Part shown: piece after piece, positions 62-30,600 of the stretch
How positions within the stretch are numbered: position 1 is the first letter of the stretch
Layout of the letters: each line of letters begins with the position of its first letter
Source: Glaucostegus cemiculus
Lineage: Eukaryota
Length of the DNA: 64,000 nucleotides
Assembly (NCBI GenBank): GCA_976551045.1
Contig: CDPCPM010000211.1
Span: 2,666,001 to 2,730,000, forward strand
Reading direction: 5' to 3'
Notes under the pieces: model-generated
The model's input: the letters and a program-made list of their open reading frames with translations, nothing else
Databases searched by the model: none
Told to the model about the DNA's origin: nothing
Translations under genes and position numbers: made by a program

Positions 62-138
62 TTACGGTGGACAGAAGATTCCTGAGACTGTCGTCCCAGA
101 AGGTCGCTGCTCTGGAAAGAGACAAGGCTGGTTAGACG
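62..138 (+). CDS. D8C copy 1, middle exon (YGGQKIPETVVPEGRCSGKRQGWLD-G)
   Basis: ttatttcAG acceptor, GTAAG donor; 77 nt, the same length as paralogous exon 9310-9386. Confidence 0.85.
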
Positions 139-3100
139 GTAAGTCAGAGTTTAGAACAGTGTAGTTCAGTTATTTTTTTGATGGTCAGTTGGACAACCCA
201 GATATCTTCAGAGGGCCCCTTAACGTGGACACCGAGCCCAAACTCCCTGAGAAGTTCTCCCCACAAATCCCTCAAACCATGCTCCAGCCCTGATCCTCAT
301 GGAGTCTGGCGGTGGAATGTGGATGTCAACATTCGGGAAGTTTCCCGGCAGTAGTGCTGTGGATCCACCTGCCAACCCCCTCCAGATTAGACCTGGTAAA
401 GTTCCAGTGGCTCCATTCGTTGCATTGGAGGGCTCGCTCCCAGGAAGCTGGTGTCTCAGCGCATTCACTGTTCATGATGTAATCGGGCTGCATTAAAGGG
501 ATGCAGTCTTTTGTTCAAGTTGTATGAATTAATCATTTTATTTGTATTATTTTTATTTAATTTGAAATGTGCTTTCTATTTCTTGCGTTGCCATTAGTTT
601 TAATATTAAATGTATATTTCAATTGCTTGACTATGTCCATTTTCATTAATTTTAACATTTTTCTTTATTTTCTAAACATATACCAGAATCAGATTTATTA
701 TCGCTAACTTGTATGTCGCAAAATTTGTTGATTTGCGACAGCATTACAGTACAAAGACACAAAATTACTGTAAATTACAAAGTAAAATAAGTAGTGCAAA
801 AACAAAGAATAACAAAGTAGTGTTCATGCGTTTATGGACCATTCAGAAATCTGATGACAGAATGGAAGAATCTGTCCATGAATCATTCCATGTGGATCTT
901 TAGGCTCTAGTACCACCGCCCCAATGGCAGTAAGTCCCAGGTGGTGAGGGTCCTCAGTGATAGATACCACCTTTTAAGCCACTGTCTCTTGAACATGTCT
1001 TCAATAGTGGGGAGGGTTTTGCCCGTGATGGAACTGGCTGATTCTACAACCCTCTGCGGCTTCTTGCGATCCTGTGCATTGGAGCCTTCATCCCACACTG
1101 TGATGCAACCAGTCAGAACGCTCTTCACTGCACATCTATGGAAATTTACAAGTGTTTGGTGACAGACCAAATCTCTTCAAACTCCAAATGAAGTAGATCC
1201 GTGGGCATGCCTTCAGAATCAGTTTTATTTTCACTGAGATATGTAGTGAAATGTGTTGTTCTGTGGCAGTAGTACAGTGCAAAACATAAGAATTACAATA
1301 AATTACATAAATAAATAAATATTGCAGAGGGAGAGTAATGAGGTCGTGTTCATGGAACATTCAGAAATCTGACAGAAGAAGGGAAAAGAGTTGTGCTTGT
1401 GATGGAGCTGGCTGAGTCTACACCCCTCTGCATCAATGTGTTGGGCCCAGGAGAGATCTTCTGAGGTGTTGCTCAGAGGATCTCCAGGAACTTGAAGCTG
1501 CTCACGATTTCCATTGCCGACCCCTCCGGAAGTTAACAATCAATTCCTTGGTCTTGCTGATATTGAGTTCAAGTTACTGTTGCAACACCACTCAATTAAT
1601 CGATCTATCTCACTCCTGTAGGCCTCTTTGTCACCATCTGATATCCTGCCAACAGTGCTGTCAAGGTGAACTTCTAGATGGCAGTTGAGCTGTGCCAAGC
1701 CACACAGTCATGACTGTGGATGAAAGTGGAGCAGTGGGATAAGAGCACATCCTTGAGAAGCGCCTGTGCTCATTGTCAGTGAGGAGGAGATGTTACTGAT
1801 CTGCACTGACTGTGGTCTCCTGATGAGGAAGATGAGGTTCCATTTGCAGGCGGAGGTCCATAGGCCCAGGGTTTGAAGTTTATTGATTAACACTGAGGGG
1901 ATGATGGCATATATTCTGTGTTATATGCAGTTAGTACAATTAGGAATGTCGTTATCAACATTCATTGTATTCATCAATTCAATCCTTCCCCTTACGATGT
2001 ATCAACATCCTCAACATTTCAACACTGTATCAGAGAAACATTTGAAAGGATGTTACACAGGGCCCAGTTCCTCAGTATCCAGTGGTGGCAAAACCTTCAC
2101 GGCTGCACCACGATGTTTCGAGGATGTTTTAAGGGCTCCTCGATATCTGAATATCAGTGAATCCTGATGGTTTCCGATTTTCTTTTCTACTCAGCCTGGG
2201 GAATGTCTTCACTCACTGTCAGAGCAAACCTGGAGAGGCACAAGGCCTTAGCAACTGGAGCTAGCCTCAGGGAGTCAATTCAATTAACGCAGTTAATTTT
2301 AATAAGCATTGACGATATCCTAAACCTGTGAATGGCTCTCAGTATTGAGAAACAAAGTTTATGGAAATAGTTACGGGTGTTTGGCCTGGAGGTGCATCTT
2401 CACCAGTTGTCTGATGTACATCAGGGGTTAGGCTTGGGTTCCCTGTCCAAAGCCTGGACCCACAGGGCCTCATCAGTGTGTGGATTGAGGAGAGGAAGAC
2501 AGCATCTCATCAGAGACTGAGGCCAGACTGGATGCTGGGTTGTGCACCACTGCTTTACAGTGGCCCAGTACCGCATTCCCTGTCGGACCAGATACAAATT
2601 CCTATGTTTATAAACCTTATCCCAGGTGCCCATCCCACCACAACAGAGGGCGAGGTAACGAGGAGAGTTTATTTCATTGGGAATGAAAACAACAAGAATG
2701 GATGGAACTGGAATGGAAACGACATTTACCATGAGAACCTGGATATTAAGATCAAAAATTGCACTGATTACTTTGTGTATCAGCTGAAGCCGACCCCCAG
2801 TGATGGCGCTGTGTACTGTACAGGTATGTCACCGTTCTCATTAACACAGAGGGGTAAAGAGTTGTGGGGAAGCTTTGGGAGGTCCCGAGTCATCAGTACA
2901 CACAATGTACCCTGCTGCTTGGTTCGCCCTCACCCCGATCTGAACCTAGCTGCAGGCCTTTGTGTTTGTAAATGTGAATCTATCCTTACAATTTCGCCTG
3001 TATTGGCCTGCCCTAATTTATACAGGTCAGTCTCCTTTGTTTAAATATAACAGCTCCAAGCAAGAGAGTTTCTCCCTCAACCAAAATTGTCCGGTCTGAG

Positions 3101-6100
3101 CCGCTTCCTTGTACATGTCTCCTGCAGCTTGTATTGTACCATCACATCCTTCTTGTGGTGTTGTGACCAGAACTGTGCACAGACTCGTGATGTGTACAGT
3201 TCCAACATGAATACCCGGCTCCTGCACTTTGTGTATGTCTTACTTATTGGACACTGCTCCCCAATTGAGATAAAGCCAGTCCCCACCGTTCTATCCCAAA
3301 AATCCCATTCCTCCTAATTTATTTTGCTGTAGCCATGAAACTTCTTAATTCTCGTAAATTCCCAACAACTTTCCTGTATTGTTTTACAATCAACATATAT
3401 TGATGAGTAATTTACAGTATCTAATTAACCTGTTTACAATTCATTGGGATGTTAGACGAAACAAGAGCACAGGTTGATTGGGAGGGGTGGTTGAGGGGGT
3501 GAAAAACAGGCCATCGAGCAGAGAATACGCAACCTGTACGCTGCCCACAGCCGAGGTGAGGATTATATAATTTCCTGGAGATTTTACAGAGTCACACTAA
3601 GTACTGTATCACCGTGCCATGGCCAGTAGTTGTCTTAACTAAGTTATCCACCTCCTGCTGCTACCATCAGTGACGAATCGACATGCTCGCCAAGATCCCT
3701 CTGTCCCTCTACACTTGCCGTGCTAGAGTTATTCTGTGTTGCCTGACCTTGTATGACCTCCCTGTGTTCATTTCATTGACTTTTTCAGAAATAATTCCAT
3801 TTGCTGCTTTTGTTTATATCTACCAAGTCCGCGGAATCTTCCTTGTAGATATTTCTTCCTGGAAACAAATAATGTTGGAGTCATTAGGAAGCCTTTTAGA
3901 TGCATATTCTACCTTAAATTCGAGATCTTTTGCATATTGCATGAAAAGTAAAGGGCCAACTACTGACCCCTGCAGAACATCACCTGACAAATCCCTTAAT
4001 TCACTGACATTCTTGACAAACTTGATTTTTTTTCAACTAGGAGTAGGTTTGAATCTCAAGCCATTTTCCCTTGAATACCGTGGGACCTCAGACTTCTTGA
4101 TCAATCCATCGTATGGCCAGACTCTGTGTGTACTGTATCAAGTTCGCTGCGCTCATCAACCGTCCTCATTGCCTCTTCAAAAGCTTCAATTAACTTTATG
4201 AAAGATAACCTCTCTTCACAGAACTGTGCTGAGTGCAGTTGATTAACCTACACCCCTCTAACAGAGGCACTTCAAACAATTTCCAACAGTTTACCTGAAA
4301 CCAGTGTCTGACTGGCAGAACTCTCGTCACCTGATCTGAACTGCTCCAATGTTCCAATGACAATATCACAACAGTGAACTCCCAGTCCTCTTGTGTCACA
4401 CGAGCATACAAGGAGCACCTGAAATAGAACTTGCCGCATAAAATCCCTTTAAGGGACAGGGTATCCAATGTAAAGATGCTGAAACTTGATGTATCCTCAC
4501 TTTAATTATGGCATAAATGCTAGAACAACTCAGCAGATGAAGTGGCAACTTGGGGGGAGATAGAGATAGAATTTCAGGCTGAAGATCCTTTGTCAGTTTT
4601 ATTGTAACTTTAAATCCTGAGAGCCAATATCGTCCACATCACACATGAAGACAGATGCAAACAGGTGGCTGGCATCTCTGCAAGTGTCTTTCCCTCCACT
4701 GATGGTCGCTAACAGGACCCAATTTCATTACCAATCCAACATCAGAAGGTGCATTTCATTTCAGCTGGAATATGTTTTAATGCAAGCGTTGTCTTTGCAA
4801 TTTCATTTTTAGTCTCACTCCTGCATCTTTTGCACCCATTCAGATTTTCTGCAGTTATCAGCTTTCGGTGATTGAACTTGGCTTCTTCTTCTTGGTGCGG
4901 CAACTTCTCTGCCCATGGCCAATACAAATTTAGAGAGTTGTGGACACAGCACCGTACATCAGAGAAACCATCTTCCCCTCCATGGACTCTTTCTATGCTT
5001 CCTGCTGCCTCAGTAAAACAGCCAGCAGAAGTAGAGACCTCACCCATCCCGGACATTCTCTCTTCTCCCCTCTCCCATCAGGTCAAAAATACAAAAGCCT
5101 GAAAGCAAGTGATACCAGACTCAAGAACATCTTTTACCCTGGATCACTCACTGGATTCAGTCCAGTTTTGTTAAATTCAGCCCAGTCAGTCTAGTCTATA
5201 TCTAGTTTAAATTTTCATTTGTTGGTTTAACACAGCCTCTGCACACTATCTCACTACCAACGTTTTCTATTTTGCTTGGTTCATCTAAGTGTGTCCAGAA
5301 CGACCACTTTTCTTGTTGGGCTTGCTACTTGCTGATCAAAGACTGCGCTCTCGATTGCATTTCCAAGATTCAGCTCCTTCTATGCCTTCCCACTGGACCT
5401 GTCCCAATTAGTGACAGAGTGGTGGAAATCCCCAGCCATCATTAGCATGGTACCTTTACACAACTCAGATATTTGTCGGCATGTTTACACTTCTGCTTCC
5501 CTCTGATGATTTAGGGGCTGTGCTACTCAACACCGCTGTTCTACCTCAGTCTAACACACATGGCCTCTTTGGTTCATTATAATTATACACCCTACAGCAG
5601 ATATTGATCAGCGTAACCTATTCTCGTGTGCCAGCACTTGGTTTGTAACCTGCAATGCCCTGCAAGTTTAATGCTTATCTCGTCCTTAAATTTGCTAGGA
5701 GTTCCTGTCTCCACCACCTACTTGGACAGTGTGTTCCAGATTGCAACTACCCACTGGGTGAAAAGATTCTCCTTAGATCACCTCTGAAGCTCGTACTTCT
5801 CAACTGAAACCTAAGTCCTCTGGTCTTAGACACTTCTGCAATGGGAGAAAAGCTTTCCAATACCTTATATATGAACCTCATAATGTTGTCTCCCTCCATT
5901 AGACATTTCTTCCATGGAAATGAAGCCCAGCCTTTCCAGTCGCTCCTCGTAACAGACACATTCCATTCCAGGCATCACACTGGTGAATCTCCTCTCCAGC
6001 TTTGTCTGGGAAATTATTGGGTGTGAAGGACTGGGGCTGCAGCAGGATCCTGGTGCAGTTCTCTCACCATCAATTCTGGTTTCTTCTTCCCAGCTAATTT

Positions 6101-9100
6101 GAGGGTAATTATGGTGTTCCCACTGTGCCAGAGCAGCATTTCATAGTGCAGAACTGTGAAGTAACCAAGAATCCTGTCATATTAACTCATAATATAACAA
6201 CTGACTCGCAGCAGCATCGCAGGCACATAGCATCATACAAGCAGCATTTACAAGAAAAACATAAAAATGTATTAAACACAGTTTTTAAAAGAAAGAACAT
6301 AATCAGAAGGAAAAAAGGAAAAGTCGATTTTCGTGAAAAATGATTCCAGCCTTTGCTTCTACCACATCCAAAAAGCTCGTATCCACTGGAGCCTCTCTCC
6401 ATTCTGACGCAGCTGTCAGCTTTGCTCTGTTTCACCTCACTGTGGCTACCACCACTTCAGAGACCCCAGCAGAAAATTCAGGCTAATTCCCAGTGCAGTG
6501 CTCAAGAGGTGCTACCAGGGTTTCTCTGTGAAACAGAATCCCTGTCTGTTCTGCAGGAAGTCTGAGTGAGTTTTCTGTGTGCTGATGCCTGGCTAAGTTC
6601 ATTAGAACACGTCATTTGGCAACTGGTTTCCTGTTGTGTGAACTGGTACTACAGAATTCAATTTATGCATTCCCTGCTTAACATCAGAGTCCATTTTTCC
6701 AGTGCATATCATTAACATGCACAACACGTTCAGAGATTTTAGGTAAGTGCCCTTAAATTGAAACTCTAAGTTGCTCTCTCTCTCTTTTTCTCTGCACAAA
6801 TGCTGCCTAACCTGCTGTGTGTTTCCAGCATTTCTATCTTCATTTCTAACATTTGCACTTTTAAAAATCTTCAATATAACTGCAACCGATTCTGTAGCAG
6901 ATCGATTTGTGTTCCATCTGGTTTCCATCCCGACCTGTGTGGATTATCCATGTTCTCCGTGTCACTGCGTGTGTGTGTGTGCCCCACACACTTGGTTCCT
7001 GGCCATGTCCCAAAGAAGTGCATCGATAAATTGACTGCAGTAAATTAACCATCAAATGTACACTAGTGGCAAAAGTAATCGAGTGAGAGTGGACAGGTTG
7101 AAACAAAGCAACAGAATCCTCTTCGAAATGCACGTGAGTGAATAGGATGTAGATGTGGAACCAGTGATCAGTAAGTTTGCAGATGACACGAAGATTCTTG
7201 GAGTCCTTGACGATATGGAAAGTAGCCAGCCTGCAGAGAGACGCACACAAAATGCTGGAGGAACTCAGCTGGTCAGACAGCACTTGAGGAGAGAAATAAA
7301 CGATAAGCTGACTTCTGCCCTTTTCATTTGCAGTCCTGATGAAGAGTCTGGACACAAAACGTCGACATGTTTGTTTCCCTACTTCAGTGCTGCCTGACCT
7401 GCTGAGTCCCTCCAGCATTGTGTGTGTGTTGCTCCAGATTACAGCATCTGATGAATCTCTTGTGTCTCCAGAATACAGGGAGATATCGATCTGTTGGTGA
7501 ATTTGGTTGAGAAATGGCAGATACAGTTTAATCGAGATAAATGAGTATGAAGATTTGGTGTATTAATAAGGCTGATACATAGGTCATGAACGATGGGGTC
7601 TGAAGGAAATTTGAGGAACAGAGGGAGATAGTCTTTGAAGGTGGCTGGTCAGCTAGTTAGTCAGGGCACTGAATACAGAACTTTATGAAAGCTTGTTCAA
7701 ACCTCAGCTGAAGTACTGTGTACAATTGTGGTCACCACACTTTGGGAAGGATGTGATGGCGCTGCAGAGGCAATTCAGCAGGATGTCACCTGTGGTAAAT
7801 CCGGGCTCGTAGCTACATGGATGGGAGAGGTCTGGAGGGTTATGGACTGGGTGCAGTTCAATAGGACAAGCGGAATAATGTTTCGGCACAGACTAGAAGG
7901 GCCGAATTACCTGTTTTCCGTGCTGTAGTGTTGTATGCGTCTATGGGATGGGTTGTGCCAGTTATGGGGAGAGTACTGAGATGTTCGGTCTGCTCTCACT
8001 GGAGCGGTGGAGGTTCAGAAGGGCTATAATCAAGATATATAAATTGATAAGGGGTACAAACAAGGTGGACTGCAGGAAACCTTTCCATAAGTGTTGAATT
8101 AAGAAGACATTAGGAGGGCATGCGACAGTCACCCCGAGAGTGGTAAATTCCTGGTATGTACTGCCTCAGTGAGTGGTTGAAGCTGGGCTGCTGGCTGCAA
8201 TTAAATGTTTAGCTCAGCACTTAAATCATTTAGGCAAGGAGGACTATGGACGAGGCAGAGATGGAATTGGTAGGAAGTGGTGCCCAATGTTCAACATGCA
8301 CGAGTTGGACTGAATGACCTCTTTCTATGCCACATGATTACACGATTTTATCAACACGGAACAAAGGAGAGCTGGAAGAATGAAACGGATTGAGTGTTCA
8401 TGTGTGCGAGGTTCTTGTATTTCAGAGAGTACAGATGAGCTCAGTGGAGGTGGGAGCGGTGACAAGAGGCTGGTTGACTTTGGCTGAACGACATTAACAC
8501 TGAACATCATTTTGTACCTCAGCCGCAGACTCTGCACTCAGTGATCCGTGTGTAACCCACGCCGTCCTGGATCAGCACTGGAGGAGCACGGATTGTTCCA
8601 ACACTGGGTGCACAGGCGGTCAATCCATGCAAGATGAAAGTCGGACAGAAGGATGGTACAGATTTAAGAGGTACGTGAGACGGCAATTCCAGTGATATTA
8701 GTCAATGATGCAACAGATATCTAGGGGAATAAGGGGAATGACAAGGGAAGATGTGGGGAGACAGGAGTCATCAATGACAGTAATTGGACAGGAAGTGGGT
8801 TCAGGGAGACTGGGATCATCAGTCACAGTGATGGGACATGGAGTGGCTACAAGGAGACTGGGATCATCAGTCACAGTGATGGGACATGGAGTGGGTACAG
8901 GGAGACTGGGATCATCAGTCACAGTGATGGGACAAGGAGTGGGTACAGGGAGACTGGGATCATCAGTCACAGTGATGGGAGTGGGTGCAGGGAGACTGGG
9001 ATCATCAGTCACAGTGATGGGACAGGGAGTGGGTGCAGGGAGACTGGGATCATCAGTCACAGTGATGGGACAGTGAGTGGGTACAGGGAGACTGGGATCA

Positions 9101-12100
9101 TCAGTCACAGTGATGGAGCTGGTTGCTAATATAGAAGGGGGAAACTCACAGTCCGTACATAGAAGATGAGATTCTTATGATAGAGGATAAATTGGGACAC
9201 CTAAGATTGGGGGAATATTGAGCAAATGGAATGGGCCCTAATTTCCTTTCTTTCTCTCAGTGAATTAAAGTCCTCAATTCAGAGGCTGATTCATCAGTTT
9301 TTCTTTCAGCTCCGGTGGATGGAGGATCCCCGAGACGAGCGTTCCAGTGTATCACTGCTCCGGGCTGAGTCCAGGCTGGTTAAACGGTAGGGTCAGAGAT
9401 TACAAAGCTGGGGCTTGGTTACCTTACTAGGAAGATCAGACTAATGACTCATTTCTTCAGAGGTCGCCTCACACAGACACGGAGCCCATACTCCCTGAGA
9501 AATGTTCCCACAGTCACTCAAACCATACTGTAGCCCTGGATCCTCATGGAGTCTGACAGTGGAATGTCATCTTCCTGCAATTCCCTGGTGGTTGCGCCAT
9601 GGATCCGCCCGCTGATCCCTCTCAAGACTGGAACAATACAGTTCCAGCAGTTCCACTTATTTCAGTAGAGGAGCAGATACCAGGGAACTGTGCACGTCTC
9701 AGGGCACACAGGGTTCAGGAGTTAATTAATAAATGAATATAATTTTGAACAGAAGTAATTAATGTTTAAATTTAAGACTCTTCTTTGTTGTCATGTTGCA
9801 ATTATTTTAACTTACATTTTCTGTAAGGTCTGAATATTTTTATGTTTAAAATCGTGATTATTACCGTTTTGAATATTTTCAAAGCGTGCAAATGTCTGAA
9901 TATCCTTGGAGATATTTATCATTGTGTCTGCATGCGCTTGGCTTCACCAGCGTTGAAGCACATGGTGGGCAGGGCTTGTGTTTCAGGTCCAAATCCAGGG
10001 AGCCACAAGGCCCCGCCAACAGGAGCTGGCCTTGGGAACCAGGTACACTGCCTGGAGTGTGGAGTGGGGAGGGTGAGGGCAGCAGCTCACCACTGACTGA
10101 GGCGAGATGGGACCGTGGGCTGTGAACCACCGCTCCACAATTTGTCCAGATTCATATTCCCCGCTCTACTGTAGGACTGGCTACATTTCATCGTGTTTAT
10201 AAACCTCATTCTAGGTCTCCATCCCAGTGTGGGAGAGGGAGAGGTGACCAGGACCGTCTGCTTCACCTGGGATGGACAGAGCTGCCACAGAAACCGGGAG
10301 ATCAAGGTCAAAAATTGCGGCGCTTACTTTGTGTATTGGCTGAAGCCGACAACCTGCTGTAACATGGTTTATTGTACAGGTAGGTCACCATTCCCCATTA
10401 AGGTGTCGGATGTTGTTGGGAAATTCTGAGACATCCCAAATGATAAAACACACAATGGCCTGAATATTCCAGCCCGCTGCCCCTCCCGTGGTCACTGATC
10501 ACCTCATTCAGTTCCGCATGTCCCAGGTCTGAGCAGCCATTTCAGAGCCTCATTTTCCAGGTCTGATCTGTAACGCATGATCCCACCCTGTGACCGACTT
10601 GTGAGCCCTCCACGGTCAGAGCCACACGATACCAAGCACCAAGCTGAGCCACCCTCGCCCACCCCCTCGTGGGCTGAATGTTCTGTCCACAGTGAGTGGA
10701 AAATTGCTTCCAGCCATGACGTCAGCTGCCCACCCCCTGCTCTCCTGGGACTAAGTAATCATCTCCTCCCCGTCCATAGGACTGAGCCGTCCCACTCCTC
10801 CCTACCTGGTGACAGCCATCACCCACTTTCCTCCATCCTGTACCGAGCCCTTCCACCCCAGAAGGAGACATCCCCTCCACCCTCTCACCCTGAGCTGAAA
10901 AGGCCAGTCACTCTCTCCCCTCTGCCAGGCACCAATGTAGCAAGTTACCCAAATATTTTTGGGATGTGAAAGGAAACCAAAGAACCCAGATGAAACACGT
11001 GATCACTGGAAGAATGTGCATCTTCTGACCAGACATCATCACAAATCGGGACTGAATCCAGGGAGCTGGAGCTGTGAGGCAGTAACTCTGCTGTCCAAGG
11101 TCTAAAGGAGATTCTCTGCGCTAATACCTGGGATGAGAGGATTGTCCTTTTAAAAGAGGACAAACAGTTTGATTCTGTATTCCTTTCAGTTTAGAAGCAA
11201 GAGGTAACGTTATTCACACACTTAAGGCCTCAACAGGACATGATAGATTAGATGCTGAGATGTTCTCACCCATGGAAGAGTGTCAAACATTGGACATAGT
11301 TACAAAAAATAAGATCTGATACTTAAAACTATTTGTAGTAATTTCTTCTCAGATGGTAGTGACTATCTGGAATTTATTGTCCACCAGGGTGGCGGAGGCC
11401 AGATCATTAGAGATATTTGAAATGGGGATAGGTACATGTTTGAAAGATGGAGGAACTGAGATTTATAGGAAACCGGTACAGAAGTTCTGTGGCCAGCATA
11501 AATTATCTGTGATCAGCTTCAGGGGACCAGTCGTCTGCTCCTTACTCCTTGTGATCTGGCGCTGTCTGTGACAGTGTGAAACTGGAGTTAGGTTGTGGGA
11601 CGAAAGGTTTCCTCCCTTAGGGGCATCACAGAACCAAAGGTCTTCACAGATCCGCCTGAGGGGCACAGATGGAATGAGGAGGGGCCGTGTTGGTGGGACG
11701 GAGATAGTGATGAAGAGATAATGAAGACTATTGAAAGAGCAGTGCTGTTCATGCTGCCTACGATAATCCACTCTGCCCAAACTATCTCAGCTCCCCTTTT
11801 TCCCTTCTGATTTCATGGGGTATGCTCCTGTATCCCTTGTGCTCCAGGGGTTCACTTGATCCCTGCTGCCTGTACCTGACCTATGCCCGCTCCTTTTCCC
11901 GGATCTGAGTCTCAATATCCCTCGTCATCCAATGTTGAATCAGAAATGCAACTCCCACTCCACACTTTACTCCACCTCCATCCTGCCTATGGCACTTGTA
12001 CTCTGGAACATTTACCCGTCAGTCTTATCTTCCTGAGCCATGTTTCCGTTATGGCTGTAATATACCAGCCCCACATAGCTATCCATGTCCTGAGTTGATC

Positions 12101-15100
12101 TGCTTCACCTTTCAGATCGTTTGCATGGAAAAAAAATACTGTTTAATCCAACAGTCTTTCATGCTCCTGCCATGTTAATGCCTGTCTTGTCTACTGAGCT
12201 TAATGTAATTGAATTCTGTATGGACTTCCAGCCTCCAATCTGCCTCAACGTTGTGATAGACACCACCCAATTAGCAATCTAGTTTAAGCACTCCCCAGCA
12301 GCACTGGCAAACTGCCTGCCAGAGTATCGGTCCCCCTCCAGTTCAATGCAATCTGTCTCTGTTGTACAGGTCACCTCTTCCCCAGAAGATATCCCAGTGG
12401 TCCAGAAAACTGAATCCTTGCCTCATAAACCAACTCTTCACCTATACATTGATCTGCCATGTGCTCCTGTTCTAACCCTCACAACCATGTGACATAGGGA
12501 GTAATCCAGAGGTTACTATCCCCGAGGTCCTGCTTTTTAACCTCTTTCCTAACTCCCGATATTCTTTCTGCAGGACCTCATCCATTTTCCAACCCATATC
12601 TTTTCTGCCAATATGCACAAGGACTTCTGGCTGCTCACCCTCCCCTTTGAGAATGTTCTGCGATCATTCGGAGACATCCTCGACCCTGGCAACAGGGAAG
12701 CAACACACCATACTGGAGTCTTTTTTGTGGCCACAGAATGACCTGTCGGCTCCTCCAGCTATTAAGTATCCAATCACTATGGTCCTGACTGCCTTCACCC
12801 TTTTCCGCTGAGCCTCAGAGGCAGCCCCGATGTCACAGCCCTGGCGACTGATGCCTTCCCCTGAACAGTCAGCCTCTTCTCTACCCCCTCCCAAATGGTA
12901 TCCAAAACAGCAGACTTGTTTTCAAATGAAGTGGCCACAGGGAAAAACTGTACTCTCTTCCTCCCCCTCGACATTTCTTGTTTTGGGTTCAGTGCCGTCT
13001 ATCTCTGGTGTAGGTGACCGACATGGAGATACTGAGGAAAGTGTGACAGTGGGACGGTGAGGGTACTGCCATGACTCAGGGTGTGGGTGTAATTGGATAC
13101 TGGTGACACCCTGACAACGCAGAATGTGTTAGTCTGATATCAGTCAATTCTGGCAAAGAGTCTCCAGACTGAAATGTTAACTGCTCATCTTCCCACAGAT
13201 GCAGCTGGACCTGATGTGTATTCCCAGCATTTTTACTTTTGGTTTTCGATTGGCAGCATCTGAAGTTTTATTCAGATATTCAGCCATTCCCTGGAGTTTA
13301 ATTCCCTCCTAACCAGCTGGTCAAGTGTTAATTCTCCTGCACTCACCACGTGTCTATATTTATTGCAGACCCAGCATCTGTATCAACTCAGGAACCCAAG
13401 GAAAAATCAACACCTGAACCCAGGGAAAGTTTGTGCATGGTGCCGACACCAGCTGCAAGCTCAGGTATCGGTCGTGGGGATTGCTAAAATGGGCTTTTCC
13501 CCAAAATTTCCATTTACGAGATTCAACCAGAATCAACGAATCTATGGGAGCGAGTGAGGGTAGGAGGGTGGAAGGGTGCAGGGAGGGGGCCGTAGGTTCA
13601 GAGGGAAGAGCAGGGTAGACAGGTACAAGCGAACAGGGACGGGATGAGGAGTCCGATGGTGGGGGAGTGGAGCAGCTCGGGAGGGTTTGAGAGGAGAAGG
13701 CAGTGCGAGAGAAGAGCGGACAAGGAAGGTCCGAGGGGAGTGGAACGGAACAGGATGGTCCGAGGAGAGAGGCGCGAGTGGAGACAGAAGGTTGTGGGAT
13801 GAGCTGTGCAAGGGAAGTGATGTGGATGGACCAAGGTGAGGGTGAGTAAGTGATTTTATTCCTGAAAGTGGCTGCACAGGGTGATTGGGTGGTAAAGATG
13901 GCGAATAGCTTGCTTGTCTTTATTCGTCCAGGTACTGAGTTCAAGGGTAAGGAAGTTATGTTACAGCTTTACAAAACCCTGACCAGGCACATCTGGAGTA
14001 TTGCGTTCAGTGCTGGTCACTCCTTACAGGAAGGACGTGGAGGTCTTAGAGAGGGTTCAGAAGATGATTACTAGGATTCTGCCTGGATTAGAGGGCAAGT
14101 GCAATAGGTAGAGGTTGGATAATTTGGAATGCACTAAAGTGCATACGTTTAAGATAGCGCTGGTGAGAGGAGTAAGTTCAAAGTAGATGTAAGAGGCATT
14201 GTTTTCCACAGTGGTGGGTACCTGTAATGCGCTGCCAGTGTGGCAGAGGAGACAAATCCAATAGAGGCTTTTGACAGGCTCTTGGATAAGCAGATGAATG
14301 TGCAGAGAATTGAGGGATGTGGACTGTGTCGGCAGGAGGAATAGTTTAGTTAGGTGTTTAATTACCAGTTTCATTAGTTCAGCATAACATGATGGGCCGA
14401 AGGGCCAGTTCCTGTAGTGCACTGCTCTATGTTCAATGACGGAGGGAAGTGGGGTCAGTACTGAGGACTGCGGGATGTTGTATCCTGGAGAATTGTACTG
14501 GACTGACTGAGGGAGCGGGAATGAAGACACTCAGCAGAGAGGGTTTTAGTCACCTCCGCGCACACTTTTTGGAAAGATCGAGGTGATTTGGGTGACATGA
14601 CTTAAGTGAGAGGGACAGACCATCCCTGGGGTGAGGGATGAATTGACTGCAGGAGGATGGCGAGGATTGTGATGACGGGGCGGAGGGTGGTGGAAGGAGT
14701 GGTATGAATCCTTATGTGGTGGGGTGTGGGCTGTATTTACCTCCAGGACCAACACTGGCAGCAAATTCCAGGCACCCACCCCTCTCTGTGGGATTCTGAG
14801 GAGACCAACATCGGAGCGTGTTGGCAATTTGTTAGTGTCAGCAGAGGCTGGTTTGGGCCATACTCTGCCGTCCCTAATCAGAAAGAGCAGTATGTTTGTT
14901 TCTTCCATGTTTTCCTCTGCCCACCATGTGTCCCTGCTTTATCACAGATTCATGGTCCGCACCAACTCGTGAACTGAAGGGTAGAGTACATGAAACCACT
15001 GAGAATTTGGGCACAACTCTGTCACCAGCTAAATGCTCAAGTGTTGGTTGTAGGGCTTGTTGAAACAGTCTCACCCAAATCTTTATGCTGGAACTTTAAC

Positions 15101-18100
15101 GGGACTGAGGTGTATGTGGTGGAGGTAAATGGGTGGATTGACAGAGGGAAAGGAATGTGGGTGTGGAAATGACAAAGAAGTGGAGGGTTGTGGAGACGGA
15201 TTTGAATGATTTGGGAATGATGGATGGAGATATTGCTTGATGGGGATGGACACCAACGACCGAGGGGAAGGGAGTTAGGCATGGACTGTATTCGATGACT
15301 GTGTCTTGTTTGCAGTGTGAGGTTAGACACCAGTTGCATATGAGTATAATCCTGGACGGATGTCTCCTGTTCTCTGAAGTCAATTTCTACGCTGAACAAT
15401 TGCTCAATTTGATTTTAATCTCGAACATTTCCCCACCCACTCTTTTATCCATAGACCCGATCGTCCACTTTCTGAAGTCCTGTCCCAGCCTAATGACCTA
15501 TTCCCGTGTTTTCACTCACGTATTTCTGTTCCTTCATTCTAGACATGGAGAATTCCACACGGGAGTTCTCTGGAAAGGGTGTTGCATTTCCCTGCCTTAG
15601 ACCGAGACTGGCCCAGGACACCATGTGGCGATAGGTCTGCAGAGAGTGGAGGAGGACTGGGTCCTGGTCGTTGGTGGCCGGTGGGTGGGTGGGTTTATAC
15701 TGACTGCAGGAAAGATATATAAAACTCTATGCAACATGTTGAGCACAACATACAAAACGTGCTGGAGGAACTCAGCAGGTCAGGCAGCATATACGGAGAG
15801 AAATAATCTGTCAACGTTTCAGGTCAGGACCCTTCATCAGGACAGGAAATGAAGATGCAGAAGCCTGAATAACAAGGTCGGTGGAGGGGCAAGAGCACAG
15901 AGTGGCAGGTTGTAGGTGAGTGCAGGTGAGAGTGGCAAGGTCAGATGGTGGGGAGGGGAGATTTAAGAAGCTAAGAGGTGATATGTAGAAGAGGCAAAGG
16001 GCTGAAGAAGGGGTCTGACTGGAGAGGGCGGTGGACCATGGAATAGACAGAAGTAGTTGGGGAATAGATGGGCAGGACATGAGTGCGAATAAAGGACAAA
16101 GATAGGGGAGGGGCCACAGGAATGAGGGAAGACGAAGGCGGAGGTTAAAAGGAGGAGGAGAGGAGGGGAGTGGTCACCGTAAGTTAGAAAAATCGATGTT
16201 GAGGCAATCAGGCTGAAGACTTCCGAGGTAGAGTACCCTCCAACCTACATCTGGCCTCAACGTCGCAGTAGAGGGGTAGATGGATGGACGTGTCGGTGTG
16301 GTAGTGGGATGTTGGATTGAAGTGACTGGCCGCCGGGACATCCTAGCTTTGCAGCGGACGGAGCAAAGATGCTCGACGAAGAGGTCACCCAATCTGCGTC
16401 GGGTCTCACCGATGCAGAGGAGGCTGCACCGGGTGCACCGGATGCAATAAGTAAAGTGAGACTCGACGCAGACTGGGTGACCGCTTCGTCGAGATTTTTT
16501 GCATCACTTCCCCACACCACCTTTGACTCACCTCAGTCCTGTGGCCCCTCCCCTTCCTTTCCCCTTCCCCTGCCCTCATGACCTGCCCATGTATTTCCCA
16601 CCTCATTCCTTCTGTTCCACGGTCCACTGTCCTCTCCAATCAGATCCCTTCTTCTTCAGCCCTTTGCCTCTTCCATATCACCTCTCAGCTTCTTAAATCT
16701 CCCCCTCCCCCACACCCCTACCTCCAATTTCTCAGCTGGACTGACCTATCACCTTCCATCCTGTGTTTCTCCCCTTCCCCGACCTTCATATTCCGGCTTC
16801 TGCCCTCTTCCTCTCCAGTCCTGATGAAGGATCTCAGCCCGAAACGACAACTGTTTATTTTCTGCCATGGATGTTGCCTGAACTGGTGAGTTCCACCAGT
16901 ATTCTGTGCTGTTGCTCCAGATTCCAGCATCTGCAGCATCCCTTGTGTCTCCAGGTAACAATGAGGGGCATTAATGGGGTAGACTGTTGAGAGATGTCCA
17001 CTGATCAGATTTAGAGGGGAAGTGACGGGGGAGCATTTTCACCCTGAGAGCAGTGAATGCCTGGAATGGCCTCCTTGGCCGGAGTGGGTGGTGGGGCAGA
17101 GACACCGGCAGCATCTGAGAAGTGTGTCGACAAGCACTTCAATCACCTCAACATGGAACCCACCGGCCAAGTGCAGAAAAGGAGATAAAATGAATACAGA
17201 CGGGTGGAATTATTCTCCAGCTGATGATGCGTACATCTCTGAGCCGAGGTTGGACATTCCATTCCCACAGAATCCCAGGAAACATACACACACTGTCCTT
17301 GTTTCAGGTGAAGTCTCCGGAACCGCTCCAGGAACCAGCGACATGCGGTCAACTCCCGATGAACCTCCCGAATCCCAGTCTAATTCCGATGAAGGTGAGG
17401 ACACTGCAGCAGTCTATCTGTCAAAAGAGGTTGAGTCCGTCCTTCATGGGTGATGTGCAACATGAACGTCAGTGCCGACCCTGTCATTGTGGGAGGCCGG
17501 CAGGTCTGTGCAGGGAAGGCCGGTGTCCCTGCATCCCATTCCCTCCTATCTCAGTAGGAGAACTGGGTGACCTTATGGAGGTGTACAACATGGACAGGTG
17601 AATGCACGCGGCCCTTTCCCCATGGAAATGAATCAAAACTACAGGACATAGGTTTAAGGTGAGAGGGGAAAGATTTAAAAGGGACCTGGGAGGTAAGATT
17701 TTCATGCAGAGAATGATGAGAACATGGAGCAGGCTGCCAAAGGAAGGTGCAGTAACAACATTTAAAACACAGCTGAACAGGTCCATGGACAGGAAAGGGT
17801 TAGAGGGTTATGGGCCAAACGTGGATAAATGGGACTGGTTTCCATGGACATCTTGGCCGCATCACTCTCACTCTCCACCACTCCCATTGCCCCACTCACA
17901 CCCTTTCCTTCCATTCCCACTGCCTCGCTCTCTCTCTCTCACACACAGCACAGAAGCTGACCCCATGGCCCATCAGGTCCCTGCTGGCTTTAAAGTAGCG
18001 TTCTAACACCGCTGCTTCCCCGTTCCCCCCTCCCTTGCCTTCCCATCCCTCGCCCTCCCCTCCCTTGCCTTCCCATCCCACGCCCTCCCCTCCCTTGCCT

Positions 18101-19404
18101 TCCCATCCCACGCCCTCCCCTCCCTTGCCAGCCATCAGTCTCCCTCATCTTCTTCACCTTTCCCCTGCACTTCCCTCACCCTGGTCCCTCACTTCCTCGC
18201 TCCTCCACCACTCCCACAACCTCCCCCCTCCTCTCCCATCCCTGCCACACCTTCCCTGTCAACACTCCATCTCCACCTCCGCTCTCTTCGCTTCTCACTT
18301 CATCAGCCCTCACTCTCCTCACCACACTTCGTAATCCCTCCCTCGCTCTCCTGTCCCGCCCTGTCCCTCCCTCGCTCTCTACCTCTCTGACTCTCTGCAG
18401 ATGTCCATGTCTGTATTTGCAATGAGAGGAAAATATAATGTGAGTAGAAGAGAACTGTTGGGTAAGATAGGGGACGAGGGGTGAGAGACTATGGGTAATG
18501 CAGCCTCCGTTGGAAATGAGGCACCGTGGAACACATCCCATGAGCAGCGCTCGGCTTCACCCTGATCTGCTTGTTGTCGTTGTCCTGGTGTGTTCAGGTG
18601 AAGACTACCGGAAGATTCAAGTGAAGGTGACTTCGTTGGGAGACATAAGTGAGGAAGAACTGAAGGAGGCCGTGCGTGCAAAGGTGAGAGGTTAAACTGT
18701 GCACAACAGGGTGGAGGGGAGGGAATTCTGGTGTTGTCACGTCTCCCTCTCACTGTCCGTCCTCACTGAGATGTACAGGGTGGAGGGAAGGAGGGAGGGA
18801 CATACGGACACATCCCTCTCTCACTATCTGTCCTCACTGAGGTGTACGAGGTGGGGGGAGGGAGGGACTTGGGTACATATTCTCCTCTCACTGTTTGTCC
18901 TCACTGAGATGTACGGGGTGGGGGAAAGGAGGGAGGGACACCGGGACAGATTTCAGTCCATTTGCCTATCCCTGTCCCTCTGTCCATCTTCCCATTCCTG
19001 CCGAACCCTCCCCTCATCCTCTCTCAATCCCGTCTCGCAGTTTCCTCTCCCTTCGCCCCGTTTCCTCGACCAGTCTCTCTGTACCCCCTCTCCCGCCCGT
19101 CTCTGGTCTCTGACCCACTGCCCATGTGCCTCTTGGTCTGCTGTTTCTTTCCTCTCTGTCTGTTTCTCTGTCTCCCTCTTCCCGTCTCTGCAGCTGCTCC
19201 CAATCAATCTCTTCGCTCTGTTTCTGATGTTCCCACCCCCCACCCCCCGACACTCTCTCACAGCCCCACTCCTTTCGTTCCCTCCTCATGCAGTTTCTCA
19301 CATTCTCTCCTCTCTGGGAACAGCTCCAGGTGATGTTTGGTGATCCGGACCCACAGATCGAGCTGGGGCAATGCTCAGCCGACACTCCAGAGGACAGACA
19401 GTGA
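62..19404 (+). CDS. Spliced gene, 5'-truncated by the window edge: uromodulin/GP2-like protein with tandem D8C(D10C) domains, mucin-like linker and small C-terminal domain. Predicted exons 62-138, 2626-2823, 8426-8449, 8523-8670, 9310-9386, 10215-10379, 13369-13464, 14948-15040, 17308-17394, 18598-18683, 19324-19404
   Basis: Each exon is bounded by AG/GT with compatible phases (2/1, 1/1, 1/1, 1/2, 2/1, 1/1, 1/1, 1/1, 1/1, 1/0, 0/stop). Translation gives UMOD D8C hallmarks DPC..LD.HWRS..GWYRF, GG..IPET.VP...C....GWL.G.HP...EGEV.R.VCF and KNC..YFVY.LKPT....YCT. Confidence 0.75.
684..1910 (-). mobile_element. Two adjacent Rex1/Babar-type LINE fragments (approx. 684-1213 and 1214-1910)
   Basis: Minus-strand peptides LINKLQTLGL...RPQSVQI...STGASQGC and RKKPQRVVESASSITGKTLPTIED; both fragments start with a similar cagaatcag.tt(t)att 3' end. 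Confidence 0.7.
2626..2823 (+). CDS. D8C copy 1, last exon (GAHPTTTEGEVTRRVYF...KIKNCTDYFVYQLKPTPSDGAVYCT)
   Basis: cttatcccAG acceptor, GTATGT donor; contained in ORF 2478-3044; homologous to 10215-10379 with 33 extra nt. Confidence 0.88.
3030..6010 (-). mobile_element. Several decayed CR1-type LINE fragments (approx. 3030-3300, 3680-4400, 5600-6010)
   Basis: CAQFWSQHHKKDV and SKTRGLRFQLRSTSFRGDLRRIFS-type motifs. Confidence 0.6.
4870..5140 (+). mobile_element. Rex1/Babar-type LINE 3' fragment
   Basis: DLTHPGHSLFSPLPSGQKYKSLKASDTRLKNIFYP, typical of the RT C-terminus of this clade. Confidence 0.65.
6870..7080 (+). mobile_element. Decayed HE1/V-type SINE
   Basis: ctgtgtgga...catgttctcc.tgt.actgcgtg core, similar to the SINE at 60975. 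Confidence 0.5.
7150..8330 (+). mobile_element. CR1 RT 3' fragments, interrupted at approx. 7235-7470 by a palindromic Penelope-derived element
   Basis: ISKFADDTKI motif; CR1 resumes after the insert with (R)IQGDIDLLVNLVEKWQIQFN. Confidence 0.7.
8426..8449 (+). CDS. Candidate 24-nt linker microexon (ESTDELSG)
   Basis: cttgtatttcAG acceptor, GTGGGA donor, phase 1/1, 73-nt intron to the next exon. Confidence 0.45.
8523..8670 (+). CDS. D8C copy 2, first exon (AADSALSDPCVTHAVLDQHWRSTDCSNTGCTGGQSMQDESRTEGWYRFK)
   Basis: tttgtacctcAG acceptor, GTACGT donor; DPC...WRS...GWYRF motif. Confidence 0.88.
8745..9117. repeat. Intronic minisatellite, 48-bp unit (GGGAGACTGGGATCATCAGTCACAGTGATGGGACAAGGAGTGGGTACA), about 7-8 copies, one 42-bp variant
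   Basis: Directly visible; 16-aa periodicity in ORFs 8698-9108 and 8705-9076. Confidence 0.95.
9310..9386 (+). CDS. D8C copy 2, middle exon (SGGWRIPETSVPVYHCSGLSPGWLN-G)
   Basis: ttctttcAG / GTAGGG; 77 nt; phase 2/1. Confidence 0.88.
10215..10379 (+). CDS. D8C copy 2, last exon (GLHPSVGEGEVTRTVCFTWDGQSCHRNREIKVKNCGAYFVYWLKPTTCCNMVYCT)
   Basis: ctcattctAG / GTAGGT; lies within ORF 10193-10429. Confidence 0.9.
11960..12960 (-). mobile_element. CR1 5' fragment with ORF1 SGNH/esterase region
   Basis: IVIGYLIAGGADRSFCGHKKDSSMVCCFPVARVEDVSE, homologous to the ORF1 at 41430-41642. Confidence 0.8.
13369..13464 (+). CDS. S/T/P/E-rich linker exon (DPASVSTQEPKEKSTPEPRESLCMVPTPAASS)
   Basis: tttattgcAG / GTATCG, 96 nt, phase 1/1; completes the YCT-DP junction typical of UMOD-like domains. 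Confidence 0.7.
13860..14440 (+). mobile_element. CR1 3' fragment
   Basis: LKVAAQGDWVVKMA...EFKGKEVMLQLYKTL; ends in the GGGCCGAAGGGCC...TGTAG 3'UTR. Confidence 0.75.
14948..15040 (+). CDS. Duplicated linker exon (DSWSAPTRELKGRVHETTENLGTTLSPAKCS)
   Basis: tttatcacAG acceptor; exon and flanks align to 13369-13464; weak donor A|GTGTTG. Confidence 0.5.
15740..16950. mobile_element. Penelope-like element 3' ends in inverted arrangement: minus copy approx. 15740-16455 with GIY-YIG endonuclease remnant, plus copy approx. 16455-16950
   Basis: Minus translation YCIRCTRCSLLCIGETRRRLGDLFVEHLCSV...LYLGSLQPDCLNIDFSNLR; both arms end in the CTGATGA..GAAAC-containing terminal repeat. Confidence 0.8.
15808..15845 (-). 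ncRNA. Minimal type I hammerhead ribozyme motif (Penelope-associated)
   Basis: Minus strand reads CTGTC-CTGATGA-AGG-GTCCTGA-CCT-GAAAC-GTT-GACAG: stem I CTGTC/GACAG, stem II AGG/CCT, intact core, short AC/GT stem III, NUH = GUU. Confidence 0.7.
17308..17394 (+). CDS. Acidic S/T/P linker exon (GEVSGTAPGTSDMRSTPDEPPESQSNSDE)
   Basis: ccttgtttcAG / GTGAGG, 87 nt, phase 1/1. Confidence 0.7.
18024..18130. repeat. Pyrimidine-rich 30-bp tandem repeat (CCTCCCCTCCCTTGCCTTCCCATCCCACGC), about 3.5 copies
   Basis: Directly visible. Confidence 0.9.
18598..18683 (+). CDS. C-terminal module exon 1 (GEDYRKIQVKVTSLGDISEEELKEAVRAK)
   Basis: gtgtgttcAG / GTGAGA, phase 1/0; beta-strand followed by amphipathic helix pattern. 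Confidence 0.65.
19324..19404 (+). CDS. Candidate terminal coding exon (LQVMFGDPDPQIELGQCSADTPEDRQ*)
   Basis: Long polypyrimidine tract then aacAG, phase 0, TGA at 19402-19404; no clear AATAAA found downstream. Confidence 0.5.
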   Translation, partial: LQVMFGDPDPQIELGQCSADTPEDRQ

Positions 19405-28545: not shown

Positions 28546-28691
28546 NNNNNNNNNNNNNNNNNNNNNNNNNNNNNNNNNNNNNNNNNNNNNNNNNNNNNNN
28601 NNNNNNNNNNNNNNNNNNNNNNNNNNNNNNNNNNNNNNNNNNNNNNNNNNNNNNNNNNNNNNNNNNNNNNNNNNNNNNNNNNNNNNNNNNN
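28546..28691. other. Assembly gap (N run)
   Basis: Run of N. Confidence 1.
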
Positions 28692-30309
28692 AGAAGATAA
28701 GTATATGATGAGGTCATTGAGATAGAGAGATGGACAGAGAGAGAAGGGAGGCACGGCAGCCTGTTTTGTTTCTGTCGATGGATGAAGGACAGTAACTGTG
28801 TTTGTCACTACAATCCACGGATAGATTTCTGGAGTAGTCCAATGGAGTCCACTTTGTTGTTAAGCCTGTAGAAGGAAATGGGTATTTTGGTGTGGATGAC
28901 CACAATTTGGATGCTTTTCAGAGTGGCAGATGCTTCGGAACAAAGTGATGGAATTTGCCTTGCTGCTGACCTGTAGAAGAACACAGGTATTTGCATGGAC
29001 AGTCACGATCCAGGAGATTTCGAGGTGAGAAAGTCACTACAGAGCAAACACTGAAGTGCCGTTTGGGTTCCAAGTGGAACAATCAGGTTTCGTGATTCCT
29101 CTCTAAGCTCTCTTTATATCTATGTTTTGTCTTCGGTGGACGGTGCTTGTGAAGAAGCCTTTACACTTGTTTTATCTTACAGCTTGTTGAACTGAACTTT
29201 AAGAACTAATTCCTGGACTTGGAGTTTAGGAATTTGCGACACACACACACGACGAGTAGTTTTGGGGTTACTGTTTAAGATTCTAATCTTTTTTGGACTA
29301 ATATACTAACTTATTTTCTTTATATTATGTATTATCGGGAGTAGCTATTAATAAAGTAGTTATAACACTGAATTATGACGGTGTGTTTCCTTTGTTGCTG
29401 CTTTCGTAACAAAATTGGGGGCTCATCCGGGATATTCCCAGGTTATTGAGTGTTCCAATCCAAAGATTGACGAGGGTGGTTTGAACTCAAACTCAAGGCT
29501 GGTACTGGAGGTCTGAGATTGAACACATTGAGGTCGGTCTGATANNNNNNNNNNNNNNNNNNNNNNNNNNNNNNNNNNNNNNNNNNNNNNNNNNNNNNNN
29601 NNNNNNNNNNNNNNNNNNNNNNNNNNNNNNNNNNNNNNNNNNNNNNNNNNNNNNNNNNNNNNNNNNNNNNNNNNNNNNNNNNNNNNNNNNNGATGCATTT
29701 TCGGAGTCACCAACCCTAGAGGGATTGCAGGTGGTAAAACAGGATGAGTTGGTAGAAATTTCTACAAACCTTAAAGCAGTAAAACGATTTATGACGAAAA
29801 CAGTTATTTATCACATGATAGTTGACTATTCCTTGGAGAATGAAGCGTTTGAGGTGAGTGAGGTAGCCGCGTTTGCTGAGATTAAACCGGTGATTTCTGA
29901 TGTGACTTCTCAACCTGTGGCAGTGGAGGAGGAAGAGTTTTCTGGGAGTGAGTTACAGCTTCCTGATGGCTGGGTGCAGTTAGCAACGATAAAGTTAGAA
30001 CAGAGGAAACTAGAGTTCGAGGAGGGAGCCGGAATGGGAACGGGAATGATTAAAATCTGAGGCTGGGGCAGAGCAAAGGAAACTAGAGGTTGAACAGGAA
30101 CGGATGAAGTTTGAAGCTGAACTGAGGAGGATGGAGCTGGAGAGTGAAGAGAGGGAGAAACAGAGGAAGCACGAGTTAAGAATGAAGAGACAGAGTCTGG
30201 AATCTGATTCTGATAATGAGTTTTCAGCCAGTAGCGAGGTTCCATTGGTCCCTCCTTTTGATGAAGATCAGGTTGATCGGTATTTACAACATTTTGAAAA
30301 AGTTGCTAC
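28692..30309 (+). mobile_element. Gypsy (Gmr1-like) LTR retrotransposon 5' fragment: LTR ending ...GTAACA at 29411, PBS, partial gag
   Basis: PBS TGGGGGCTCATCCGGGAT at 29416-29433 (1 mismatch to the tRNA-Pro PBS); gag peptide ...HELRMKRQ...EVPLVPPFDEDQVDRYLQHFEKVAT. Confidence 0.75.
29545..29691. other. Assembly gap (N run)
   Basis: Run of N. Confidence 1.
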
Positions 30310-30600
30310 TGTCATCCCGAAATCGATTACCACTTCTGTCCGTTGTAAGAAACACAGTGCCACGAGGTCTGCTCGAAAGGTACCTTTATTTTCTTTCGCG
30401 GTACTGCTAGGAAAGTCCCATTAGCACTCACACAGAGTCGCTTCCCAAGGTATCTCCCCGAGCAATGGGTAGACAGAAATTTATACAGGTTTTCTCACGC
30501 AAACCCCATGCATCCGGCGCCGCGAGTTTCGGGCAAACTATACAAATGTTAAAGTAGCTATTACACTCGTGTCCTGGTATAATTGGATTGCAATCAAGAG
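30310..30600 (-). mobile_element. LTR (R/U5) fragment of another element, truncating the Gypsy gag
   Basis: Begins TGT on the plus strand; minus-strand TATAAA (approx. 30480) upstream of AATAAA (approx. 30385). Confidence 0.5.

Follow-up and report, generated by a model that had tools for sequence, protein, structure and literature searches.

A real gene, of which the 3′ 337 codons are present, lies at 62-19404 on the + strand of the stretch of Glaucostegus cemiculus DNA analysed here (64,000 nucleotides of assembly GCA_976551045.1, contig CDPCPM010000211.1, positions 2,666,001 to 2,730,000 of the forward strand; the whole stretch is called the window below). Its product carries two units of D10C (also called D8C), the domain found in the decoy module of uromodulin (UMOD) and GP2, followed by a Ser/Thr/Pro/Glu linker, an unannotated terminal module of about 50 residues and a stop. 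By sequence similarity, the gene belongs to a family that has expanded in elasmobranchs and in whose models neither a ZP nor an EGF domain was detected.

Exon structure and D10C units

The layout was read from nine exons with AG/GT ends and compatible phases (Table 1), which join without an internal stop up to the TGA at 19402-19404, in DNA of vertebrate type with introns and repeats. Homologues match every one of the nine in tblastn comparisons, and since these comparisons pick exactly these nine, the exons are not chance open frames. The weakest is 17308-17394 (E 0.014-0.044), and both of its matches, in the models P0052 (E 0.014) and P0009 (E 0.044), stand right ahead of the terminal module of the respective protein. 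The linker has 66 residues, 56% of them Ser, Thr, Pro or Glu. Homologues terminate at the same place as the last exon, whose acceptor at 19324 agrees with them better than the one at 19330. The linker exons, short terminal module and stop described in an earlier note on this DNA are thus borne out by the homologue matches and the TGA.

The same note had counted eleven phase-compatible exons. Nine exons are supported here, and eleven is reached only with the addition of two micro-exon candidates (6557-6565 and 8426-8449), for which tblastn found no counterpart in any homologue. Direct splicing from 2823 to 8523 gives a spacer of 7 residues, the usual length in the family. Acceptor AGs are paired at 8523 and 8529 on the + strand, 6 bases apart, and would yield spacers of 7 and 5 residues, respectively. 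Two more exon candidates, at 14747 and in a Thr-rich stretch at about 6410-6481, were dropped because homologues do not support them. Within the intron that separates the first two exons of unit B, a minisatellite of period 48 (8756-9116) generates decoy open frames. The gene had also been described as hidden from the list of open reading frames (ORFs), which is partly correct in that introns split it, as is ordinary in vertebrates, but two ORFs (2478-3044 and 10193-10429) enclose D10C exons.

Table 1. Exons of the preferred gene model (first nine rows) and candidate features outside it (last three rows)
Feature	Position	Strand	Phase	Evidence
D10C unit A, middle third	62-138	+	2-1	Splice sites; tblastn matches from 37/38 homologues, best 78% identity, E 8.5e-9
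D10C unit A, last third	2626-2823	+	1-1	tblastn E 2.9e-16, 37/38 homologues
D10C unit B, first third	8523-8670	+	1-2	tblastn 72% identity, E 8e-21
D10C unit B, middle third	9310-9386	+	2-1	tblastn E 3e-13, 37/38 homologues, at most 81% identity
D10C unit B, last third	10215-10379	+	1-1	Pfam PF23283 E 1.5e-7; GP2/UMOD alignment
Ser/Thr/Pro/Glu linker exon	13369-13464	+	1-1	57% identity to linker of skate P0046, E 5.9e-7
Ser/Thr/Pro/Glu linker exon, weaker support	17308-17394	+	1-1	Strong splice sites
Terminal module exon 1	18598-18683	+	1-0	Predicted strand and helix start; module profile E 9e-12 (profile contains this exon); P0009 68% identity, E 2.5e-6
Terminal module exon 2 and stop	19324-19404	+		C-terminus of P0009 77% identity, E 7e-8
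Micro-exon candidate, 9 bases, unsupported	6557-6565	+	1-1	
Micro-exon candidate, 24 bases, unsupported	8426-8449	+	1-1	AG/GT, open frame, weak donor
Possible decayed signal-peptide exon end	6535-6571	+		Intact donor

At least two D10C domains had been claimed. Unit B is indeed complete, whereas unit A is incomplete, its opening exon lying upstream of the window and its C5 and C7 both being replaced by Tyr in exon 2626-2823, a paired loss that is found also in P0040. This exon has, in addition, an Asn-rich loop insertion. The expected match to the UMOD D8C profile was obtained with exon 10215-10379, which is above the cut-off of Pfam D8C_UMOD and matches GP2/UMOD chains of the PDB (E 3.6e-8); Pfam detected one of the five D10C exons of the window, which gives a measure of its sensitivity. 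In an alignment to the GP2/UMOD chains, unit B retains seven of the ten canonical cysteines (C1, C4, C5, C7, C8, C9 and C10), has lost C2, C3 and C6 and has gained three, namely a loop pair and a Cys adjoining C9. Exon 8523-8670 carries C1 and the extra pair, which is specific to the family, and exon 10215-10379 has an adjacent Cys-Cys ahead of C10. Of 98 family units, 37 have the C2 motif.

The AlphaFold model of the stingray homologue P0008 (mean predicted local distance difference test score (pLDDT) 74), which served as a stand-in for the window's own spliced protein, matched the GP2 decoy crystal 7p6r with a Foldseek E of 5.7e-11 and superposed on it with a root-mean-square deviation (rmsd) of 2.7 over 129 columns. 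Together with the Pfam and PDB matches, this assigns the D10C fold of GP2 and uromodulin to the window protein. Comparison of 93 distinct units of the family showed a near-invariant core and high variability in three loops, one around C4, one between C5 and C7 and one before C10.

An elasmobranch family with two alternative tails

The family was assembled by three homologue searches. The first, with an exon as query, retained 38 of 39 candidates, all of them named from rays, sawfish or sharks, in agreement with the earlier attribution of the gene to cartilaginous fish. The second retained 30 of 61, 15 of which were new, and added skates and further sharks. The third was limited to proteins of 1296-3700 residues, a range that excludes ZP-bearing shark proteins of ordinary length, and gave six proteins, among them P0069, a catshark protein with 11 D10C units. 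The 38 and the 15, together with P0046, P0052 and P0069, make 56 elasmobranch models, all automatic and with isoforms and fragments included. D8C is present in all 56 and ZP or EGF in none; because the models are automatic and word-based searches favour close relatives, this does not demonstrate that sharks have lost a ZP-bearing uromodulin or GP2. The number of D10C units per protein ranges from 1 to 11, there are many paralogues per species, and a leader resembling a signal peptide precedes the first unit in 15 of the 38 homologues. The automatic names ('uncharacterized', 'GP2-like', 'uromodulin-like' or 'mucin-5AC-like', for example for P0009, P0010, P0046, P0052 and P0059) are misleading. 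The window gene shows the features that define the family, which are D10C with the extra loop Cys pair, a Ser/Thr/Pro/Glu stalk and a tail at the stop. An Atlas search with P0052 returned D8C-only clusters at 0.88 and 0.76, to be taken as leads only.

A domain tree (a quick version of 79 columns, with support from the Shimodaira-Hasegawa-like approximate likelihood-ratio test (SH-aLRT) only) placed unit A with the second domains of the stingray models P0008, P0010, P0018 and P0020 (SH-aLRT 97) and unit B with their third domains (SH-aLRT 81). These four constitute the closest subfamily, and their full form comprises a signal peptide, three units, a stalk and a tail. Because of this placement, the signal peptide and one and a half D10C units of the gene probably lie upstream of the window. 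By analogy with the signal peptides of the homologues, the product of the gene is probably secreted, as had been proposed. As regards a cluster of paralogues like that of the omcins, tblastn found no second D10C gene in the 19.4-64 kb part of the window, and several homologues lie on contigs of one and the same length.

The absence of EGF, ZP, membrane span or GPI (glycosylphosphatidylinositol) signal after the last D8C, which had also been claimed, agrees with all the searches made. None of the 275 + strand stop-free segments of at least 45 residues at 19.3-64 kb matched ZP or EGF, in a scan that is insensitive, and two ZP-bearing queries, both from coral, and one EGF-bearing query gave no tblastn match outside the D10C exons. 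Given the insensitivity of these scans, the conserved tail followed by a stop is the stronger argument for a ZP-less end. The maximum hydropathy over 19 residues in a near-final ten-exon model is 0.75, nothing membrane-like, and in 66 family proteins the value stays at or below 1.25 within the final 60 residues. Judged by hydropathy, a GPI signal and a membrane span appear to be absent.

The C-terminal ends of the 56 models fall into 17 with the tail of the window gene (type 1), 10 with a second tail (type 2) and 29 with neither, many of which look truncated; the two tails never occur in one protein. A profile of the type-1 tail, run against 1.84 billion representatives, recovered 19 proteins, of which 17 belong to the family and two are weak matches of bacterial type. 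This tail had no meaningful match in Pfam, its profile reached only E 0.07 against PDB sequences, and Foldseek returned nothing at E 0.001 or better. Comparison by VIA with 48,161 chains gave no Z of 5 or more, and the best score (Z 4.3, rmsd 3.3, 49 aligned), that of dodecin (Z 3.6, rmsd 2.4, 49 aligned) and that of chain B of the MUC1 SEA domain (Z 2.5, rmsd 3.6, 44 aligned) are within background. An Atlas feature search found one chordate cluster at 0.75. The predicted structure (pLDDT 78) has a confident helix at residues 18-33 between extended flanks that are unpaired; the alternating hydrophobic pattern and the class of the weak structural neighbours suggest a beta-alpha-beta fold. The tail may be hypothesised to act as an assembly module, in which case the description of the protein as non-polymerising in the earlier note would not hold; a two-copy complex prediction scored 0.05, the mark being 0.32. 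The C-termini of the 11-unit catshark protein P0069 and of a Poecilia mosaic, P0073, resemble it weakly in alignment (scores of 18.2 and 19.4), with none of 30 shuffles scoring as high and a low hhalign probability.

The type-2 tail is an unannotated helical stretch of about 65 residues with conserved cysteines, which ends 10 proteins in rays, skates and a shark (P0001, P0010, P0016, P0027, P0036, P0054, P0059, P0063, P0065 and P0068). No exon for it was found in the window (best E 0.12). P0016 and P0017, which are similarly named and lie on a contig of the same length, bear different tails, a hint of alternative last exons.

Proposed function, rival explanations and surroundings of the gene

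The preferred reading, to which a probability of roughly 45% is given, is that the gene encodes a secreted, multivalent and fast-diversifying glycoprotein of innate defence or microbe management. A single gene would give rise to a soluble protein consisting of a signal peptide, three D10C units, the Ser/Thr/Pro/Glu stalk and the tail of about 50 residues with its putative beta-alpha-beta fold, acting presumably in secretions or on the surface of an epithelium. Its disulfide-locked D10C core would present variable loops and variable N-glycans that may bind microbes or their adhesins, avidity being provided by domain repeats and not by a ZP filament. The stalk, if O-glycosylated, would space and hydrate, and the tail may join chains to one another or to a matrix. 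The presence of D8C without ZP or EGF in the models, the leaders of the homologues, the structural match of P0008 to GP2, the variability of the loops, the repeats, the expansion of paralogues, the N65-type sequons discussed below, the open frames and splice sites retained by the diverged units A and B and the protection afforded by the omcins of zebrafish were counted for this reading. The N-glycans of dogfish mucus, mostly high-mannose according to the available part of PMC10532229, are compatible with it and unspecific.

The 'decoy' mechanism that the earlier note had attached to the visible domains is not supported by this analysis. The decoy module is a beta-hairpin plus D10C, the hairpin being D45-F60 in GP2; FimH binds the high-mannose glycan at N65 of GP2 or N275 of UMOD, and the N65 site is required for its binding to GP2 (PMC8930769, text available in part). 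No hairpin precedes exon 8523-8670. From the residue after C10 of unit A to unit B there are 7 residues without Cys, and the disulfide-bonded hairpin of the bipartite module is absent. Unit B has Thr at the N65 position and Trp at the N275 position; unit A lacks an N275-equivalent site, and its N65 position lies outside the window. Since there is no hairpin, no sequon and no Asn at either site, unit B is not expected to act as a FimH-type decoy. Some paralogues, or the unseen upstream domains, may do so: an N65-equivalent sequon is present in 33 of 98 complete family units, and the closest stingray models retain a site of this type.

Several points weigh against a role in defence. A sequon scan found no N-glycosylation sequon in unit B, the sole one of the visible protein being in exon 2626-2823 of unit A, and an equivalent of UMOD N275 occurs in none of the 98 units. 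The 64 short junctions counted in the family have spacers of only 7 residues (53 junctions) or 5 residues (11), so that there is no room for a hairpin to shelter a glycan. Purifying selection is weakly shown: units A and B, both with open frames and splice sites, differ by dN 0.35 and dS 0.63 nonsynonymous and synonymous substitutions per site over 80 codons, the interval of the resulting dN/dS of about 0.53 (0.29-1.01) reaches 1, and the alignable intron flanks (71-77% identity) are as conserved as the exons (70-73%). The D10C domain is also present in the non-immune proteins VWDE and LZP/OIT3 (PMC8930769). Further, a term search of a proteome study of shark skin mucus (PMC10707392, available parts and supplement) found no protein named after uromodulin or GP2; such proteins could be listed there as uncharacterised. 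The same search of two stingray venom-tissue supplements (PMC6315956 and PMC8781517, available in part) found no such entry. The placement in mucosa or skin that the earlier note had suggested thus gained no support.

The rival that survives best, somewhat unlikely on the whole, is a structural or lubricating part of a secretion or matrix (mucus, egg jelly, uterine fluid or sensory jelly) that is not directly antimicrobial, in which D10C repeats would be protein-protein stickers and the stalk a mucin-like spacer. The long Ser/Thr/Pro/Glu repeats of many homologues, some of them automatically named mucin-5AC-like, argue for such a role, as do the composition of the window linker, the loss of the decoy glycan from unit B and the lack of a sequon in 9 units of the 11-unit catshark protein. 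Nevertheless, a gel former would be expected to have a longer stalk than that of the window gene, VWD and cystine-knot domains are missing, and variability focused on the loops and species-specific expansion of paralogues recall immune families such as the omcins (PMC11415648, available in part).

A circulating or interstitial binder in the manner of VWDE or LZP/OIT3, concerned with regeneration, lipid handling or a host-protein partner, is less likely again. D10C does occur without ZP in the regeneration-linked VWDE (PMC8930769) and also, next to lectin and fibronectin domains, in mosaic proteins of amphioxus and teleosts. However, the 56 elasmobranch models have no VWD, EGF or other effector domain, and a protein serving a single host partner would not usually have many fast-diverging paralogues.

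It is improbable that two tandem genes are involved, one for each unit, or that the locus is a decaying copy; on this view unit B formerly began with a signal-peptide exon for itself. The duplication behind the two units took in intron sequence, which is still 65-68% identical (pairs 13-483 / 9261-9726 and 2478-2844 / 10057-10401). This is in line with two genes or with decay, as are the two cysteines missing from unit A, the sequon that unit B lacks and its stingray relatives retain, and the possibility that automatic homologue models fuse neighbours. At 6535-6571, moreover, a perfect donor is preceded by the spacing of the last ten codons of the family signal peptide. The site is the sole match of this pattern in 128 kb (both strands); in simulated introns the full pattern occurred in 0 of 2000 and the short one in 14 of 2000, with the caveat that the pattern was picked after seeing the site. 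It has an in-frame upstream stop and no ATG, and is possibly the relic of the duplication of a whole one-unit gene, fused later. A single gene, as originally assumed, is favoured by the interval between the units, where 2824-8522 holds no intact signal-peptide exon (best score 16, versus 52-61 for real ones) and no terminal-module exon. The order of second then third domain is kept in the four stingray models and, by motif, in the skate models P0046 and P0059, none of the nine exons has a stop or frameshift, and the paired Cys-to-Tyr change of unit A recurs in P0040. Separately, a signal peptide starting at 8435 was rejected, as it ranked 978 of 127,900 for the whole leader.

Onward splicing to downstream EGF, ZP and GPI exons, giving an omcin- or GP2-like protein with a soluble isoform, is very improbable: tandem D10C is coupled to ZP in omcins (PMC11415648) and in two coral proteins, and no AATAAA lies near the gene (the first ATTAAA is at 19915 and the first AATAAA at 21593), but neither the 275 downstream segments nor the 56 homologues revealed a ZP, within the limits of these insensitive scans.

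A bolder version of the defence reading, and a rather doubtful one, is that sharks and rays possess a ZP-independent uromodulin system, in which a diversified repertoire of secreted D10C proteins with hypervariable loops would form oligomers or nets through the beta-alpha-beta tail in place of the ZP filament, with the Cys-bearing helical tail as an alternative. If so, the same tail, diverged, may persist in the D10C/lectin mosaics of teleosts and would represent an ancient assembly domain in the innate immunity of fish, so far unannotated.

Beyond the gene, the window contains at 56844-57775 (+) the remnant of a Rhodopsin-family G-protein-coupled receptor (GPCR; 7tm_1 E 6.4e-13) with a frameshift and stops; a related piece is fused to the homologue model P0020, which suggests that GPCR genes adjoin the D10C family elsewhere too. 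A degenerate long interspersed nuclear element (LINE) with endonuclease and reverse-transcriptase matches occupies 38550-40900 (-), and LINE-related repeat fragments occur near 13.9-14.4, 19.9-20.9, 25.6-27.6 and 30.6-30.9 kb. Broken pol pieces of a long terminal repeat (LTR) retroelement or retrovirus-like element (RT_RNaseH and RNase H matches) lie at about 42000-43520 (-), with long repeats nearby at 36423-36915, 47788-48390 and 50662-50760. Two assembly gaps of N (28546-28691 and 29545-29691) are followed by an open frame at 30050-30421, coiled and presumably gag-like, with only a weak match to TMEM247. The segment 24001-26000 is rich in GC (0.59) and CpG (93 in 2 kb), has no Pfam match and is possibly a CpG island. 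Minisatellites are present at 58735-59818 (period 35) and 18738-18940 (period about 67).

Comparison with known systems

The window protein shares with the human GP2/uromodulin decoy (PMC8930769; PDB 7p6r, 7pfp and 7q3n) the D10C fold, the core motifs and, in unit B, seven cysteines; about a third of the family units likewise have a sequon at the position of GP2 N65. Contrary to GP2 and uromodulin, it has no beta-hairpin, EGF, ZP or GPI, its unit B is devoid of C2, C3, C6 and of the N65 and N275 sequons, and it has repeated units, a stalk and a novel tail. The best functional analogue is provided by the omcins of zebrafish (omc1-15). In the available text of PMC11415648, these fish proteins carry tandem D10C in varying numbers of units, have expanded within their lineage and are induced by bacteria, and the loss of one, omc5, shortens survival; Omc5 ends in EGF IV, ZP and a predicted GPI anchor, and the omcins are called teleost-specific, sharks being unmentioned. 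Tandem D10C, a varying number of units and lineage expansion are common to both, the window showing two units. The absence of EGF IV, ZP and GPI sets the window protein apart from Omc5; the shorter omcins were compared by text alone.

VWDE and other ZP-less mosaics (Daphnia VWDE P0074, amphioxus P0071 and the D10C/C-type lectin/fibronectin protein P0073 of Poecilia, the tail of which is weakly similar to that of the window gene) likewise have D10C without ZP. In addition, these proteins have EGF, C-type lectin, fibronectin or further domains, whereas D10C is the only Pfam domain of the window gene; as a tblastn query, Daphnia VWDE matched only D10C exons, and VWD and EGF repeats are absent from the model and from the 56 homologues. 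Gel-forming mucins have a long region rich in Pro, Thr and Ser that is flanked by VWD, CysD and cystine-knot domains. Pfam found none of these domains in the elasmobranch family, and the window linker is short by comparison.

By its defining sequence features, then, the gene belongs to none of the UMOD/GP2, omcin and VWDE families, although it is built from their domain. The earlier note had not recognised its architecture as characterised. Publications already cover D10C without ZP, in VWDE, and D10C in tandem, in omcins that also have ZP and GPI, and the gene has many relatives among automatic models. The combination of soluble D10C repeats, a stalk and an unannotated tail, with two alternative tails, was found undescribed in open-licence PubMed Central and bioRxiv text, and subscription papers or supplements could list it. 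Work on the D10C fold has so far treated it solely as a support for glycans on ZP filaments. With a natural family in which the fold is retained, hairpin, ZP and anchor are dispensed with, and loops and glycan sites vary, it becomes possible to ask whether D10C can bind ligands by itself. The family is also a candidate for defence in elasmobranchs that has been overlooked and mis-annotated, and its two unannotated C-terminal modules are of a size suited to expression and structure determination.

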